DNA from: a virus
Taxonomy: Duplodnaviria > Heunggongvirae > Uroviricota > Caudoviricetes
Strand: one strand, 5' to 3'
DNA length: 64,000 nt
Virus record (IMG/VR): IMGVR_UViG_2585427757_000006
Position numbers and translations under genes: made by a program. Below the pieces are notes generated by a model. It was not told the DNA's origin and did no database searches. It saw nothing but the letters and a program-made list of their open reading frames with translations. Positions 14,661 through 18,973 of the stretch are shown here, in pieces. How positions within the stretch are numbered: the first letter of the stretch is position 1; each line of letters starts with the position of its first letter.

Positions 14661-15830
14661 TCACGTCTTAATAGTTTCTGCTACGTCGGCTAATATCGCT
14701 TCTAGTCGTTCTCCCTCTTCAGGTCTGAAGTAAAGAATGTTGGGGTTAAACCCGTAAAAGACAGTAACGTCAAGGTCTGGAAGATACTCCTTCCTGCCGA
14801 CCAAATCGGATGGCTTGTTTTTGTTGTTAAACAATGAAGTTGCCCGGCTGCCACACGTCAGCACATAGGTCGGACGCACCAGATTGATCTCTTCACGCAT
14901 AAAGTCGGTGAACTGGCCGATCTCGTCTTTGGTGTAGTCTTTTTCTTTGTCTTTAACCTTCTTGCAAACACCTGTGACATAGAGATCGCCCATGCGTAAA
15001 TCTCCAGCCGTCAATAGCTTGGCCTTAAAGTCGTCGTATCCGTTCTCCATAAAGTAACCGGTTCGAGCATCATTGCCGTTCGCATTGTCCAGAATGATCA
15101 TGATTTTCGGCTTAATACCAATGCTGGGGCGGATTAGTTCATCACCTAAGCCCATTTCAGCCGCCATCCGCGTCATGAGTACGTTAATTTCAGCCGAACG
15201 TTTGGGGTTCATCTCAAACGGACGTGAGGCTTTAACTGCGTCTATGACAAGGTTTCCCATCAATTCAGCCTGGTCGCGTAGGCGCTCTGGATCAGTTGCT
15301 GGCAGACTGCCTGGCTCGATGGATGCAAACGCCCCTACTTTTTGCAGCGATTCGCGCACTCGACTATTACAGGCACGTTTCTCGACAGCTTCTTCGAATT
15401 GCGCCAGTGACTCGAATTTGCCGCCAACTTTTTCTCGCGCTCTCATGATGGCTTGGCAGCCATTCTCAGAACACCCCTTCACAGCAGAGAAGGGCGCATA
15501 CAGCACCTGGCTGCCATCTTCAAGCGTGCGGATCTCGATTCGGTTAGATGACACGTTAACGTCTGGTGGCAATACGCGAATGCCATAGGTCAGCGCATCT
15601 TTAACCAGCCCCTGGTGTTTATCTTCGCCAAGAATAGTGAGAGCAGCAGCGAAAAACTCTGCGGGATAATGAGTTTTCAACCACATAGATTGATAACTGA
15701 TTAAGGAGTAAGCAACAGAGTGTGATTTGTTGAAGGCATACGCGCCGGATTTCTCAAACATATTCCAGATTTCTTCGGCTCGTTCGTGCGTCAGGCCATT
15801 GCTCTCTTCGACAACACCGGTAATTTTCAT
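14661..15830 (-). CDS. dnaE: DNA polymerase III alpha (DnaE-type) C-terminal segment
   Basis: FNKSHSVAYSLISYQSMWLKTHYPAEF matches the conserved DnaE motif; ATG overlaps the HNH gene stop. Confidence 0.8.
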   Translation of the reverse strand: MKITGVVEESNGLTHERAEEIWNMFEKSGAYAFNKSHSVAYSLISYQSMWLKTHYPAEFFAAALTILGEDKHQGLVKDALTYGIRVLPPDVNVSSNRIEIRTLEDGSQVLYAPFSAVKGCSENGCQAIMRAREKVGGKFESLAQFEEAVEKRACNSRVRESLQKVGAFASIEPGSLPATDPERLRDQAELMGNLVIDAVKASRPFEMNPKRSAEINVLMTRMAAEMGLGDELIRPSIGIKPKIMIILDNANGNDARTGYFMENGYDDFKAKLLTAGDLRMGDLYVTGVCKKVKDKEKDYTKDEIGQFTDFMREEINLVRPTYVLTCGSRATSLFNNKNKPSDLVGRKEYLPDLDVTVFYGFNPNILYFRPEEGERLEAILADVAETIKT

Positions 15831-16561
15831 GCAGTCACCTCATCAATCTTCACGAACTCATCCCCATTGGAGGCCAGCCAGTTCCGTTGGCGCTCCCAGC
15901 TCCATATCTCTTCACGCATTTCACTATGCAGGCGAATGTGGGCGTCTTCTGGAAGTGCTACAAGATTCCCAGGGGCGTTATCTATCGTATCGCGGTTAAT
16001 ATGGTGGACATGTTCATCGTCACGTAGCTCCCGACCGAGACGTTCTTTCGCTATCAATCGATGAACGTATTCGTATTGCGAAACGCCATTGTTACCAACC
16101 AGCTGCATCATGTAGCCGTTGGTTTTTACGATGATGCCACCTTTGTAGTTGTTCGCTTCTTCTCCGATCTTTCCGCGTTTGGCAGCCGCCAGCTTTTCCT
16201 TCGTCTCCGCGCGGATTGTTCTGCCGGTTAGCTTTTTCGAAACGGTGGCCACTCGCTCATCGATATCAGCACGCAGACCGGCATTCCACGAGGTTTTCCC
16301 ATACATAGGGTTGCCAGTGCCAGTCCGGGCTTCGGAGAGACGCTTCATACGTTCGTCATTATTTTTGTTTTTGCCACGATTCCAGGCTGGGGTAGCGGAG
16401 ATCCGCGCGCTTCCGCGCCTGATCCCCCATTTGGCTAATAAGCGGTCAATATTTGCCTTGCTGCAACCAGCTTCGGCGGCAATGTCTTCTTTTCTCATCA
16501 GGTCAACCATGTAACGCTGACGTAACCATTCTTCTGTGATTTTGTACTTCGTACTCGGCAT
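15827..16561 (-). CDS. HNH homing endonuclease inserted between the two dnaE segments
   Basis: HNH motif HVHHINRDTIDNAPGNLVALPEDAHIRLH; N-terminal NUMOD-like repeats (NPMYGKTSWNAG, GRTIRAETKEKLAAAKRGK). Confidence 0.85.
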   Translation of the reverse strand: MPSTKYKITEEWLRQRYMVDLMRKEDIAAEAGCSKANIDRLLAKWGIRRGSARISATPAWNRGKNKNNDERMKRLSEARTGTGNPMYGKTSWNAGLRADIDERVATVSKKLTGRTIRAETKEKLAAAKRGKIGEEANNYKGGIIVKTNGYMMQLVGNNGVSQYEYVHRLIAKERLGRELRDDEHVHHINRDTIDNAPGNLVALPEDAHIRLHSEMREEIWSWERQRNWLASNGDEFVKIDEVTA

Positions 16562-16609
16562 TTCTAAGACTCACTAAACAAATTGTTTTCTTATCTTATA
16601 AATTAATTC

Positions 16610-18973
16610 TCAAATATCGAAGCTCGTTATGTCGGCATTTATTGCCATTGCTTCGGCATAAGTGCGACGCTCACCATCAGCACAAAGTAGGCGTGCTGCT
16701 TTATGGATTTTTCTCGTAGAACCATCATCCAGTGACACTGTCACCCAGCCTTCCTCCGCTCGCTTAATGAAGTCGCCGCCAATGGATTTCATTTTCTCCA
16801 TATCTTTTTTCCCGATCGCTTTCCTGACCGAGTCTGCTTCCGCCATTGAGAACCCCGCCAAGATTCGCGTAGCAGCCATGATCTGTTCCTGATAAATCAG
16901 AACTCCGTTTGTGTCGCGAGAGATGTCGTCCAGCATTGGGTGTAAGGAATGTGGGGCCATGAAGCCTTTGGCCACGGACACATAATCGTCCAACATGCCG
17001 GATTGAATCGGGCCAGGTCGGAAGAGCGCAGTTGTAGCGACGACCGTTTTAAAGCTCATTGGCTCAATTCCACCACCTAAATCTTTAAGCAGCTTGCGCA
17101 TTGGGCCTGATTCAAGCTGGAATACGCCCTGTGTATACCCTGCAGCAAAACCATCCAGCACCTTGCGATCTTCAAGAGAAATGGCATCAAGATTGATATC
17201 TTCACCTGTGTTCTCTTTTATGTAGCGTTTTGCACTATCGAGCAAATCGAGAGTTGCCAGGCCAAGCACGTCCAGCTTAATTAGGCCCATAGCCTCGCAG
17301 TAACGCTTGTCAAATGCGATACAACGCGCGTCACCACGGCGTTCAACCGGTGTACGTTCTGTCAGAGGAACACCTGCTACGATCATCCCTGCCGCATGTC
17401 TACCAAAGCCACGCATAAGGCTTTGTAACTTGCAGGCTGCATTGAATGCATCAGGATATTTTGTTGCGTATTTGTCGAGACTTGCCAGTTGTTCGCGCAG
17501 CTCTTCCAATGGAAGGCTATCATCCTCGACGTTCTTCAGTTCTTTTGATACCGCCATATCTGCGGACTCCACACCATAAATACGAGCGGTGTCACGTAGT
17601 GCAGAGGCTGCGCCCAGGTAGGTGAAGTTCGGAATGCCTGCAACGTAATCTTCGCCGTAGCGTTCATTCAGATACTCGATCACCTCATGGCGACGTGCCT
17701 GGCTGAAGTCCAAGTCCGCATCCGGCAAGTCGAGACGCTCAGGGTTGATGAAACGCTCAAACAGAAGACCGTGACGGATTGGGTCGACGTTGGTTATGCC
17801 TATGCACCACGCCACCAGAGAACCGGCAGAGGAACCACGACCAGGCCCAACGGGAATGCCAGTTTCACGACTATGATTCATCAGATCGCGCACCATCAGG
17901 AAGTAACCACAGAATCCCAGGCGAGTCAGCGTGTCCATTTCGTACTTTAGCCGCTCAACATAAACCCTGTTCTCAGAAGCAGGTGGTGTGTATCCAAACT
18001 CTTTTGTGGTAAGACGTTTACGCAGCCCTGCAACAGCCAGTTTCATCAGCGTTGCAGGTTCGTCGTCTGCCATCTTGGGCAGTGCTGGTGGCAATTCATG
18101 CCAGCGCCATGTGCAGGCATCGATAATGGAGTCCTGCGTTGTTGAGGCCATTGCAGCTGTTACCGGCACATCCATGCGAACGGAGAAGGCTTTAAGCGCC
18201 TCAAGGAGATGGCGACGACCATTGATGGCGTTATCTCGCTGGTGGGGGATACGCAGACGATGCGGCTGGTCGATTTTTATGTTGTTCGTAACCATGTGCG
18301 CAATGTCTTTAATGTCTGCATCGTCGATCGATTCGTAATAAGCGGGATAGAACGCCACTGGCTCTATTTTCAATGCGCTGGCGACTTTCATCGCCCGGAC
18401 GTTAATCTGGTCGTAGAATGGGGTAGGGTGCGGATAAACCACACTATAGAAGTTGTCTTTTCCACCCGCTGTAATCAGTGTGCTTATGATTTTTGCAAAA
18501 TCGTTGCGTTGGAACACGCTACCGATGTCGGAAGTAAGCAGGATGATGTTGCCTTTGGCATATGTAGAAACCAACTGTTCGAGCGAGAGACGCGGCACAA
18601 AGTAGAACTGTTCTCGTGTGTTGGCCACCGTCATTAGTTCGCAGATGTCGCGATATCCTTGCTCATTTTTAATTAGAGCGGTAAACGAGTAGTTACGTCC
18701 CCGCTCTAATGATTCCATACATCTCATAGATTCTTTAGCAAGTTTAGCCCGGTGCTCGTATGTGGGATCATCAACAATGTTTAGTTTCACACCACAAATA
18801 ACCGCCATGTCGTCACCAGCGGCACGTTGTAGTGGAATAACGCTCGCAATATTCATGCTATCTGCTGAAATTACAGCGGTGTAGCCAGCTTCTCTGGCAA
18901 TCTTCACCGCGTTTTCAGCTTTTAGAGCCGACTCCCCAAGTGAGAAGTCAGTTCGAACCATCAGTGCCTTCAT
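16610..18973 (-). CDS. dnaE: DNA polymerase III alpha (DnaE-type) N-terminal segment (PHP plus polymerase core)
   Basis: [24 protein letters not shown] and [15 protein letters not shown] match conserved DnaE core motifs. Confidence 0.85.
   Translation of the reverse strand: [787 protein letters not shown]

Follow-up and report, generated by a model that had tools for sequence, protein, structure and literature searches.

Split genes of replication enzymes, several of them divided by a free-standing homing endonuclease gene (HEG), are the closest described counterparts of the locus considered here, a DnaE-type polymerase gene in two segments within 64,000 nucleotides of Caudoviricetes DNA (IMG/VR record IMGVR_UViG_2585427757_000006; this whole stretch is called the window), which is an SSU5-like phage-plasmid of Escherichia coli. 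The split DnaE of cyanobacteria, with its naturally split DnaE intein, was reportedly described by Wu and co-workers in 1998, and the nrdA-mobE arrangement of Aeromonas phage Aeh1 is said to be the subject also of a 2007 PNAS paper by Friedrich and co-workers. In fractured genes, three DnaE loci among them, split intein halves surround a free-standing HEG (Dassa et al. 2009, NAR 37:2560, PMC2677866). In Aeh1, nrdA is split by the HNH gene mobE, and the tails created by the insertion are essential and have no database match; the authors speculated that a degenerate intein was involved (Crona et al. 2010 NAR, PMC3045599). The same paper describes the T4 topoisomerase as split by the HEG mobA, with tail-like ends, and Petrov et al. 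(2006/2010), as cited in PMC2677866 and PMC3045599, report that T4-type gp43 (PolB) and T4 topoisomerase gp39/gp60 are split by HEG insertions. For split inteins themselves, a charge network between the first strand of the C fragment (IntC) and the N fragment (IntN) has been described together with a "capture and collapse" model (bioRxiv 10.1101/546465). A literature search found no paper on intein-derived ends or on split DnaE in SSU5-like elements.

The reading that we prefer, with a probability of about 0.78, is that the window carries a fractured dnaE: a mobile cassette of splicing-dead intein stubs and an HEG would divide the gene into two polypeptides, the stubs would pair with each other, and the cassette would spread by homing. 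The stubs in question are a tail at the end of the N-terminal segment (DnaE-N) and a head at the start of the C-terminal segment (DnaE-C).

One polymerase in two segments

A first-pass annotation, made from the letters of the window, had described two DnaE segments, a 244-aa HNH endonuclease between them whose stop overlaps the ATG of the second segment, and some 45 residues at the end of the first segment that do not look like DnaE. All three open reading frames (ORFs) and the motifs quoted for them were recovered on the minus strand (coordinates throughout are positions in the window), the overlap is an ATGA at 15830-15827, and the last 45 residues of DnaE-N (16747-16613) are indeed missing from canonical DnaE. 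The intervening gene has NUMOD3 and HNH_3 domains (Pfam HNH_3 E 1e-7) and a full-length match to PHROG 21964. Alignment to intact DnaE, suggested there as a check, shows both segments to be contiguous parts of one DnaE: in the intact proteins of phages PhiR41_1, SSU5 and Cyrano (1168-1172 aa), DnaE-N corresponds to residues 1-782 and DnaE-C to residues 789-1173 of the 1172-aa form. The DnaE domain order of PHP, palm (NTPase), thumb, fingers and HhH is present across the two segments in Pfam, NCBIfam and PDB alignments. NCBIfam DnaE models cover residues 4-741 of DnaE-N, which can be aligned to polymerase III alpha structures of E. coli and others, and DnaE-C aligns to residues 732-896 of E. 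coli alpha. The insertion falls within a fingers-domain loop, at the position that matches N734|G735 of E. coli alpha.

Relatives were gathered from the protein database, their contigs and IMG/VR, and the distance between the motifs RKAIGKK and FNKSH was then measured; it is 40-41 aa in canonical DnaE and 96 aa in the window. The listing of homologues seemed to favour proteins near the query length and missed the intact 1172-aa DnaE, so that absence from it was not counted as evidence, and a contig scan with the C-segment patterns FNKSH and PAEFF was unspecific and caught ordinary bacterial DnaE. In state a, canonical intact genes of about 1120 aa have the motifs 40-41 aa apart, like E. coli alpha. 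This was measured directly in ten genes, among them L104 (a contig-edge fragment), L106, L108, L109, L112-L115 and L120 (broken further upstream), and several more were inferred from abutting N and C alignments. In state b, the gene is split and holds a 242-244-aa NUMOD3-HNH gene (the window, L006-L008, L010, L012, L100 and L110). In state c, it is split with a gap that lacks such an HNH gene (L005, L009/L095, L111, L116 and L121). In state d, the gene is intact with 92-96 aa between the motifs, tail and head being fused in frame (SSU5 and L096-L098, and, by alignment, PhiR41_1 and Cyrano).

Every split form carries additional peptides at the gap. The N segment is longer by about 42-47 residues of the pattern G[WQMF]xxVxLxDG...H...CxDG..RT..EA...A[DE]I, and the C segment by 10-12 residues of the pattern M(A)KIxSxxPLxx ahead of the canonical G[ML]; the head, like the tail, is missing from canonical intact relatives. 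The tail is a conserved sequence and not read-through junk. In an HMMER library search at the level of 50%-identity clusters, the tail terminates at least 24 full-length N segments and is fused in three proteins, so the split state is the usual state of tail-bearing DnaE.

In PLSDB, 25 plasmids have the identical split with the HNH gene, and so do 23 of the 107 complete E. coli genomes with this plasmid type. Plasmids of Enterobacter (94% identity) and Cronobacter (90% identity) share it, and the IMG/VR contig L094 matches all three ORFs at 100%. Since the same layout recurs in so many plasmids and genera, an artefact of assembly, sequencing or frameshift is ruled out.

The selection acting on the pieces was compared, as dN/dS and dS, among the split genes of E. 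coli, Cronobacter, Enterobacter and Buttiauxella. DnaE-N gave a dN/dS of 0.03-0.05 (dS 0.56-1.17), DnaE-C 0.015-0.023 (dS 0.69-1.66) and the HNH gene 0.17-0.22 (dS 0.15-0.38), and the tail plus head gave 0-0.09 between HNH-carrying plasmids (0.23 in one pair with Buttiauxella; dS 0.17-0.48). The strong purifying selection on both halves suggests that this DnaE is a working polymerase of two polypeptides, 787 + 389 aa. A split polymerase made as two polypeptides had been one of the two options of the first-pass annotation, and it gains further support from the separate stop and start of each piece, the Shine-Dalgarno sequence of DnaE-C and the splits that lack the HNH gene. That the split dnaE is instead a broken, non-functional gene, the plasmid being replicated by the host polymerase, is highly unlikely. 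It would be in keeping with the pseudogene mark ("incomplete; missing N-terminus") that PGAP places on the C segment in some records and with a deletion variant among the relatives (P0009), but both halves show a dN/dS of 0.02-0.05 at a dS of 0.6-1.7 in four genera that are all split, the split form dominates among tail-bearing DnaE (at least 24 clusters), and the reading frames are intact at every locus examined.

The labels given by PGAP to the C segment in NZ_CP031136.1, other RefSeq plasmids and L008 (4072-5190) vary between a pseudogene ("incomplete; missing N-terminus"), "uracil-DNA glycosylase" and "helix-hairpin-helix domain-containing protein". In L120 (998-4588), an interruption at about residue 495/499 divides DnaE into two open frames that directly adjoin each other, which could reflect a frameshift, a sequencing error or recoding. 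In P0017, a 391-aa protein of an E. coli-type relative, a NUMOD4/HNH_3 N-terminal part is joined to C-segment residues ~160-389, which suggests either a second HEG insertion site within the C segment of some plasmids or a read-through call.

The other option of the first-pass annotation, a group I (or II) intron that carries the HNH ORF and whose RNA splicing restores the dnaE frame, was not borne out. Phage group I introns, those of polymerase genes among them, are known to hold HNH ORFs of this type, and DnaE-N does run beyond canonical DnaE before its stop, both of which count for an intron. Against it, Rfam gives no group I or II match in the region 14000-19500 even at E<=10, the core P3-P9 of RF00028 included, and the HNH ORF is preceded by just 48 nt of non-coding sequence and followed by none, where about 200 nt or more would be looked for. 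The 841-nt inter-segment RNA, the folding of which had also been suggested, folds no better than shuffled sequences (z = -0.57) and shows no intron-like structure above background. The 787-aa and 389-aa ORFs recur in the Buttiauxella plasmid p1WJP83, with the same stop and MKI start, separated by a 69-nt spacer without an HNH gene; the spacer measures 70 nt in the Klebsiella-type relative L009/L095 and 69-71 nt in the HNH-less relatives overall. The split is therefore independent of RNA splicing, as it is kept where the HNH gene is missing and no ribozyme would fit. Moreover, DnaE-C has its own Shine-Dalgarno sequence and conserved MKI start, and the supposed read-through tail is a conserved protein sequence under purifying selection with homology to inteins. 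The group I intron reading is rejected, with next to no chance left to it.

Stubs related to split inteins

A profile built from the insert alone (17 sequences) was compared with all PDB sequences by HMMER and matched 13 DnaE split inteins (Npu, Ssp and relatives) with E-values of 3.9e-6 to 3.6e-5. A 14th split-intein sequence followed at E 0.0015, the best non-intein match lay at E 0.11, and an earlier, smaller profile had given the same ranking. The match spans intein residues ~56-102, from the block B region to the natural split site, where the tail alignment stops; this is the exact position of the HEG. When the tails were compared by hhalign with five genuine phage DnaE IntN sequences, tail positions 3-43 fell on intein positions 60-100 of 105 with a probability of 96.9% (E 1.9e-10). 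A full-library HMMER search with extein plus tail further retrieved, matched in two stretches, DnaE N-halves of 841-869 aa with genuine N-inteins that keep Cys1 and CTxDH. The closest genuine relatives of the window tail are the C-terminal halves of the IntN of L174 and L175, and the genuine IntC of L174 starts with MKKCKIKLIKPIGKQ, close to the heads MKIKSITPLNDG and MKITKIISEKPG; the head peptide of DnaE-C carries MKITGVVEESNGLTHER. These comparisons indicate that the tail is a conserved remnant of a split-intein N fragment, and we propose that the head derives from the first strand of the C fragment. The first-pass annotation was right about the oddness of the tail and missed that the tail and the first 11 residues of the second segment make up a split-intein remnant.

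The relationship is specific to the DnaE-type intein family and does not extend to every intein: hhalign of the insert with the genuine, IMPDH-1-like intein of L116 gave no significant match (E 0.19). Pfam searches of the isolated inserts at E<=10 returned just weak Myosin_N SH3-like matches and no Hint or intein family, and no such family matched the N segment at E<=0.01.

A functional split intein whose halves are joined by trans-splicing, as in cyanobacterial DnaE, would also show homology of the tail to DnaE split-intein N fragments; the fractured-gene architecture and the genuine split inteins in related DnaE genes count for it as well. What remains here is about 45 + 10 residues, against about 100 + 36 in real split inteins. 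The equivalent of IntN residues 1-55, with Cys1 and block A, is missing; no Cys or Ser stands at position 1, and the tail opens with W, Q, M, F or Y right after the canonical extein Gly. In block B, TxxH is not conserved, a conserved His standing in place of the catalytic Thr while the position of the catalytic His is variable. Blocks F and G and the terminal Asn are missing from the head of just 10-12 residues, and the +1 residue of the C-extein is Gly (canonical Gly-Met or Gly-Leu) and not Cys, Ser or Thr. No Pfam Hint or intein family is matched, and the stubs remain in frame in the mature 1172-aa protein of the SSU5-type genes. With Cys1, the catalytic residues of block B, blocks F/G and the +1 nucleophile all missing, protein splicing of the stubs appears excluded, and a trans-splicing polymerase is very improbable.

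Real split inteins, with HN|S or HN|C junctions, are recognisable at two other sites of this DnaE family, GPGRGS|C and ESG|MRKLL, and the stubs are clearly distinct from these inteins. The dnaE genes of L174 (921-5590) and L175 (4001-8678) are truly fractured as well; their split-intein halves, inserted at FNK|SHS, are separated by a LAGLIDADG-like ORF. The Acinetobacter-type locus L116 (1128-2591, 2431-3462, 3371-4771) has a genuine fractured site at which the N piece ends in ...GPGRGS|CFLAGHEVV... (IntN), followed by a 343-aa free-standing ORF and a piece that opens with an IntC ending in ...VHN|CGGSLVAYL; as the stub split follows further downstream, the polymerase of L116 comes in three pieces. 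Pieces of this sort seem to make up the families PHROG 13169 and 21652. Another split-intein site, ESG|MRKLL, was seen in P0044, P0052, P0060, P0134 and P0136, whose pieces open with an IntC (...FIANGIVVHN) and continue with S/C-GMRKLL in the fingers; P0134 and P0136 are middle pieces of ~200 aa composed of IntC, ~100 aa of fingers and a stub tail. Some polymerases of this family are thus made of three pieces.

Probable mobility of the cassette and proposed pairing of the stubs

Homologues of the HNH protein, 242-244 aa long and 40-49% identical, sit at the same place in the distant DnaE loci L010, L012, L100 and L110, and HVHHI(N/D)R...N...NL is conserved in such distant homologues. No relative of solved structure was found by sequence for the HNH protein, and the window holds no second copy of its gene. 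On a neighbour-joining tree of the DnaE core, L010, L012 and L100 (split with the HNH gene) and L111 and L121 (cassette-bearing) each adjoin canonical insert-free forms; L110 was left unplaced, its N segment being incomplete. Between lineages, the HNH proteins are 40-49% and the DnaE proteins 36-57% identical, and the two are not congruent: the window and L010 share 48% in HNH and 40-43% in DnaE, and L010 and L012 share 47% in HNH and 55-57% in DnaE. Compared with the dnaE core (dS 0.56-1.66), the HNH gene (0.15-0.38) and the tail plus head (0.17-0.48) have a dS about 2-7 times lower in the enterobacterial plasmids, which indicates that the cassette is younger there than its host gene. The sliding-window identity of the window with Cronobacter and Enterobacter is mostly 84-99% inside the tract 16990-15740 and 78-87% outside it, and this tract of raised identity may be read as a co-conversion tract of homing. 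The patchy tree, the incongruence of HNH and DnaE, the lower dS of the cassette and the bounded identity tract are all what homing with co-conversion would be expected to leave.

Based on these results, the cassette in the fingers loop would consist of 45 codons from the end of an IntN with a stop, a spacer with a gene-start motif, the NUMOD3-HNH gene, and a start codon with about 10 codons of the IntC first strand. The two stubs may pair in the way the corresponding strands of a split intein do and form a non-covalent clamp on the two halves of the fingers. The HNH enzyme would cut cassette-free dnaE alleles and repair would copy the whole cassette with its flanks, which would account for its patchy distribution. 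Later loss of the HEG could lead to the short-spacer split of state c or to the in-frame stub fusion of state d, as in phage SSU5. As for the origin, the ectopic insertion of an HEG together with flanking intein DNA into a naive dnaE, similar to the "transposition" of mobE proposed for Aeh1, would be simple, because the stubs are exactly the intein segments adjacent to the HEG.

The spacer of Buttiauxella, in a gapped alignment to the window, fits a deletion of the HNH gene and an ancestral empty site alike. The N segment and the HNH ORF lie in one reading frame in the window (three stops between them, 16562-16612), in L010 (one stop, 4265-4303) and in L100, and not in L012 or L110. This sharing in three of five lineages was judged not significant, although descent from a contiguous HNH-bearing intein would fit it. 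The gap of other state c loci holds different contents: a ~190-aa NUMOD4 + HNH_3 + HTH endonuclease in L121 (4419-5010), a decayed, frameshifted copy of an L121-type NUMOD4-HNH_3 gene in L116 (4772-5010) and a 56-aa ORF in L111 (4681-5000). Outside the enterobacterial group, in-frame fused stub inserts are present in P0268 (1227 aa), which has a long non-UDG C-terminal region, and in P0179 (830 aa), a piece that begins with a genuine IntC.

Several points weigh against this explanation. The genuine N-intein relatives sit at FNK|SHS, 24 residues downstream, and no full-length intein was found at the exact site of the stubs; likewise, no full IntC at this site was present among the C-segment homologues searched, the longer proteins being contig-edge fragments or having internal insertions. 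About 10 residues underlie the likeness of the head to IntC, too few for statistics to be applied. For a natural fused insert, the AlphaFold model places four strands, one helix and a further strand between the extein helices, with a low confidence (pLDDT 58.9) that makes its support weak. Its top Foldseek matches are Npu DnaE inteins (4qfq_A, probability 0.98, 1.8 Å over 40 columns, E 0.11), the E-values being neither significant alone nor independent of sequence. In most lineages, the first strand of the tail is acidic (IEVELDDG) and the head basic (MKIKS); in the window, unlike most relatives, the charges of tail and head are -1/-1 and not clearly complementary. Finally, the other HEG families in the gaps of L121 and L116 show that the stubs and the NUMOD3-HNH family are not strictly linked. 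Separately, the insert model m07755a868992 also matches the central domain of topoisomerase II from phage T4 (chain C, 8yo4_C and 8yo3_C; TMq 0.39-0.46, probability 0.23), which may well be chance.

The lack of clear charge complementarity in the window is also what would be seen if the halves assembled through native DnaE interfaces alone, the stubs being a tolerated scar without a role. The insert sequence is variable, as such a scar would be, and the NrdA tails of Aeh1 are not needed for heterodimer formation (PMC3045599). On the other hand, the length and pattern of tail and head are kept in lineages whose DnaE is just 37-43% identical, the dN/dS of tail plus head is 0-0.09 in pairs of HNH-carrying plasmids, and the stubs are retained after loss of the HNH gene and after refusion. 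A scar without function is accordingly held to be unlikely, and a fractured dnaE with pairing stubs is preferred.

It is possible, at somewhat less than even odds, that the unit of tail, HEG and head represents a distinct and successful class of mobile element, in which the HEG brings splicing-dead split-intein stubs along as a ready-made heterodimerisation clamp. Such a unit could invade essential genes at sites closed to real inteins (here a Gly), because it has no need of a Cys, Ser or Thr at +1. It would leave three footprints, namely a split with the HEG, a split without it and an in-frame stub insert, and would offer a natural example of the lobe formed by the IntN end and the IntC start as an autonomous association module. 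In addition, the notion of Crona et al. (2010) that the tails of HEG-split genes are degenerate inteins would gain its first proof at the sequence level.

Locus layout and comparison with described systems

The features of the locus are collected in Table 1.

Table 1. Features of the split dnaE locus, given as positions in the 64,000-nt window.
Feature	Position	Strand	Remarks
DnaE-N ORF	18973..16610	-	787 aa; Pfam PHP (PF02811), DNA_pol3_alpha (PF07733), DNA_pol3_finger (PF17657)
DnaE-N canonical part, residues 1-742	16748..18973	-	PHP, palm/thumb and most of fingers; ends ...DFIKRAEEG
DnaE-N C-terminal tail, 45 residues	16613..16747	-	homologous to C-terminal half of split-intein N fragment; without catalytic residues
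TGA stop of DnaE-N	16610..16612	-	stop position identical in Buttiauxella, Cronobacter and Enterobacter
Spacer between DnaE-N and HNH gene, 48 nt	16562..16609	-	bears palindromic motif GAAAACAATTTGTTT at 16576-16588; conserved in HNH-less relatives
Free-standing HNH homing endonuclease gene	15827..16561	-	244 aa; NUMOD3 + HNH_3; catalytic HVHHINRDTIDNAPGNL
GAGGTG Shine-Dalgarno of DnaE-C	15836..15841	-	5 nt 5' of DnaE-C ATG; within end of HNH ORF; read from sequence
DnaE-C ORF	15830..14661	-	389 aa; Pfam HHH_6 and weak UDG match
DnaE-C N-terminal head, 11 residues (MKITGVVEESN)	15798..15830	-	proposed first beta-strand of split-intein C fragment
DnaE-C canonical part	14664..15797	-	end of fingers (FNKSHS...HYPAEF), HhH beta-binding-type domain, family-4-UDG-like domain
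HhH beta-binding-type domain of DnaE-C	about 15315-15584	-	Pfam HHH_6
Family-4-UDG-like C-terminal domain of DnaE-C	about 14664-15101	-	TIGR00758 E 5e-8 (below cutoff); Pfam UDG E 0.005
Raised-identity tract between diverged plasmids	15740..16990	-	cassette plus flanking dnaE, about 240 nt upstream and about 60 nt downstream

The phage DnaE ends in the family-4 uracil-DNA glycosylase (UDG)-like domain where cellular DnaE has its OB fold and tau-binding domain; no OB (PF01336) match was found in the window DnaE, and the fusion of DnaE and UDG is kept across the whole phage family. At what we take to be the positions of the two catalytic motifs of family-4 UDG, the alignment shows FM(I/V)VxDxP and FNP-type sequences instead, which makes glycosylase activity of this domain doubtful.

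The palindromic motif of the spacer, (G)AAAACAAnTTGTTT, has four copies in the window (16576-16588, 22613-22625, 36449-36461 and 39268-39280) against 0.36 expected. Each lies 8-36 nt upstream of a minus-strand start codon, namely those of the HNH gene, a CobT-like gene (22593) and the genes starting at 36429 and 39232, and the motif also occurs once or twice in the spacers of the HNH-less split relatives L005 and L009. It is probably a phage promoter or operator element; a promoter and terminator scan gave nothing useful on the gene strand.

These findings solve an annotation problem for phage-plasmids common in clinical Enterobacteriaceae (SSU5/pHCM2-like), whose C segment would be the second subunit of a replicative polymerase made in two pieces. 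Should the stubs indeed work as a clamp, they would constitute a minimal natural module for non-covalent pairing (45 + 10 residues), of use to protein engineers and to studies of split-intein assembly. The coexistence of three gene states in closely related plasmids also makes the homing cycle in an essential gene carried by a plasmid accessible to study.

Compared with the fractured genes of Dassa and co-workers, the window likewise has a replication enzyme gene in two adjacent ORFs on the same strand, with a free-standing HEG in the gap at the canonical intein split site; two ORFs and an HEG are also found in L010, L012, L100 and L110. The peptide ends at the gap appear intein-derived as in those loci, and genuine examples exist in the related DnaE of L116, L174 and L175. 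The fractured genes described so far have complete, splicing-competent halves, whereas only stubs are present here (about 45 of ~100 IntN residues and about 10 of ~36 IntC residues). Their HEGs are GIY-YIG or Vsr-like and the one here is of HNH type, and the insertion site differs. The cyanobacterial split DnaE (Npu and Ssp; structures 2KEQ, 1ZD7 and 4QFQ) involves the same host protein and the same helix-loop region of the fingers. Its intein site is presumably Y|CFNKSHS, and the window is split about 20 residues upstream of it. In cyanobacteria, unlinked genes give halves that are ligated by trans-splicing, whereas the halves of the window are adjacent, with an HEG between them, and splicing appears impossible.

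The Aeh1 nrdA-mobE arrangement resembles the window in that a free-standing HNH gene splits an essential replication-related gene, the tails are missing from intact homologues, and two polypeptides form the enzyme with neither RNA nor protein splicing, as they would in the window. Unlike in Aeh1, the tail of the window is significantly homologous to split inteins, dnaE is the gene that is split, and the arrangement, known there from one phage, is old and widespread. T4 gp43 and gp39-gp60, as far as the accounts cited above go, are replication enzymes split by a free-standing HEG that function as separate chains; gp43 belongs to polymerase family B and DnaE to family C, and those accounts report no intein-derived ends for the T4 cases. 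The present locus would accordingly link fractured genes with split inteins to HEG-split genes with unexplained tails, as an intermediate or end-state that until now was just speculated. Fractured genes and tails of the Aeh1 nrdA-mobE kind are known; what seems to be new here is splicing-dead split-intein stubs that travel with an HEG.

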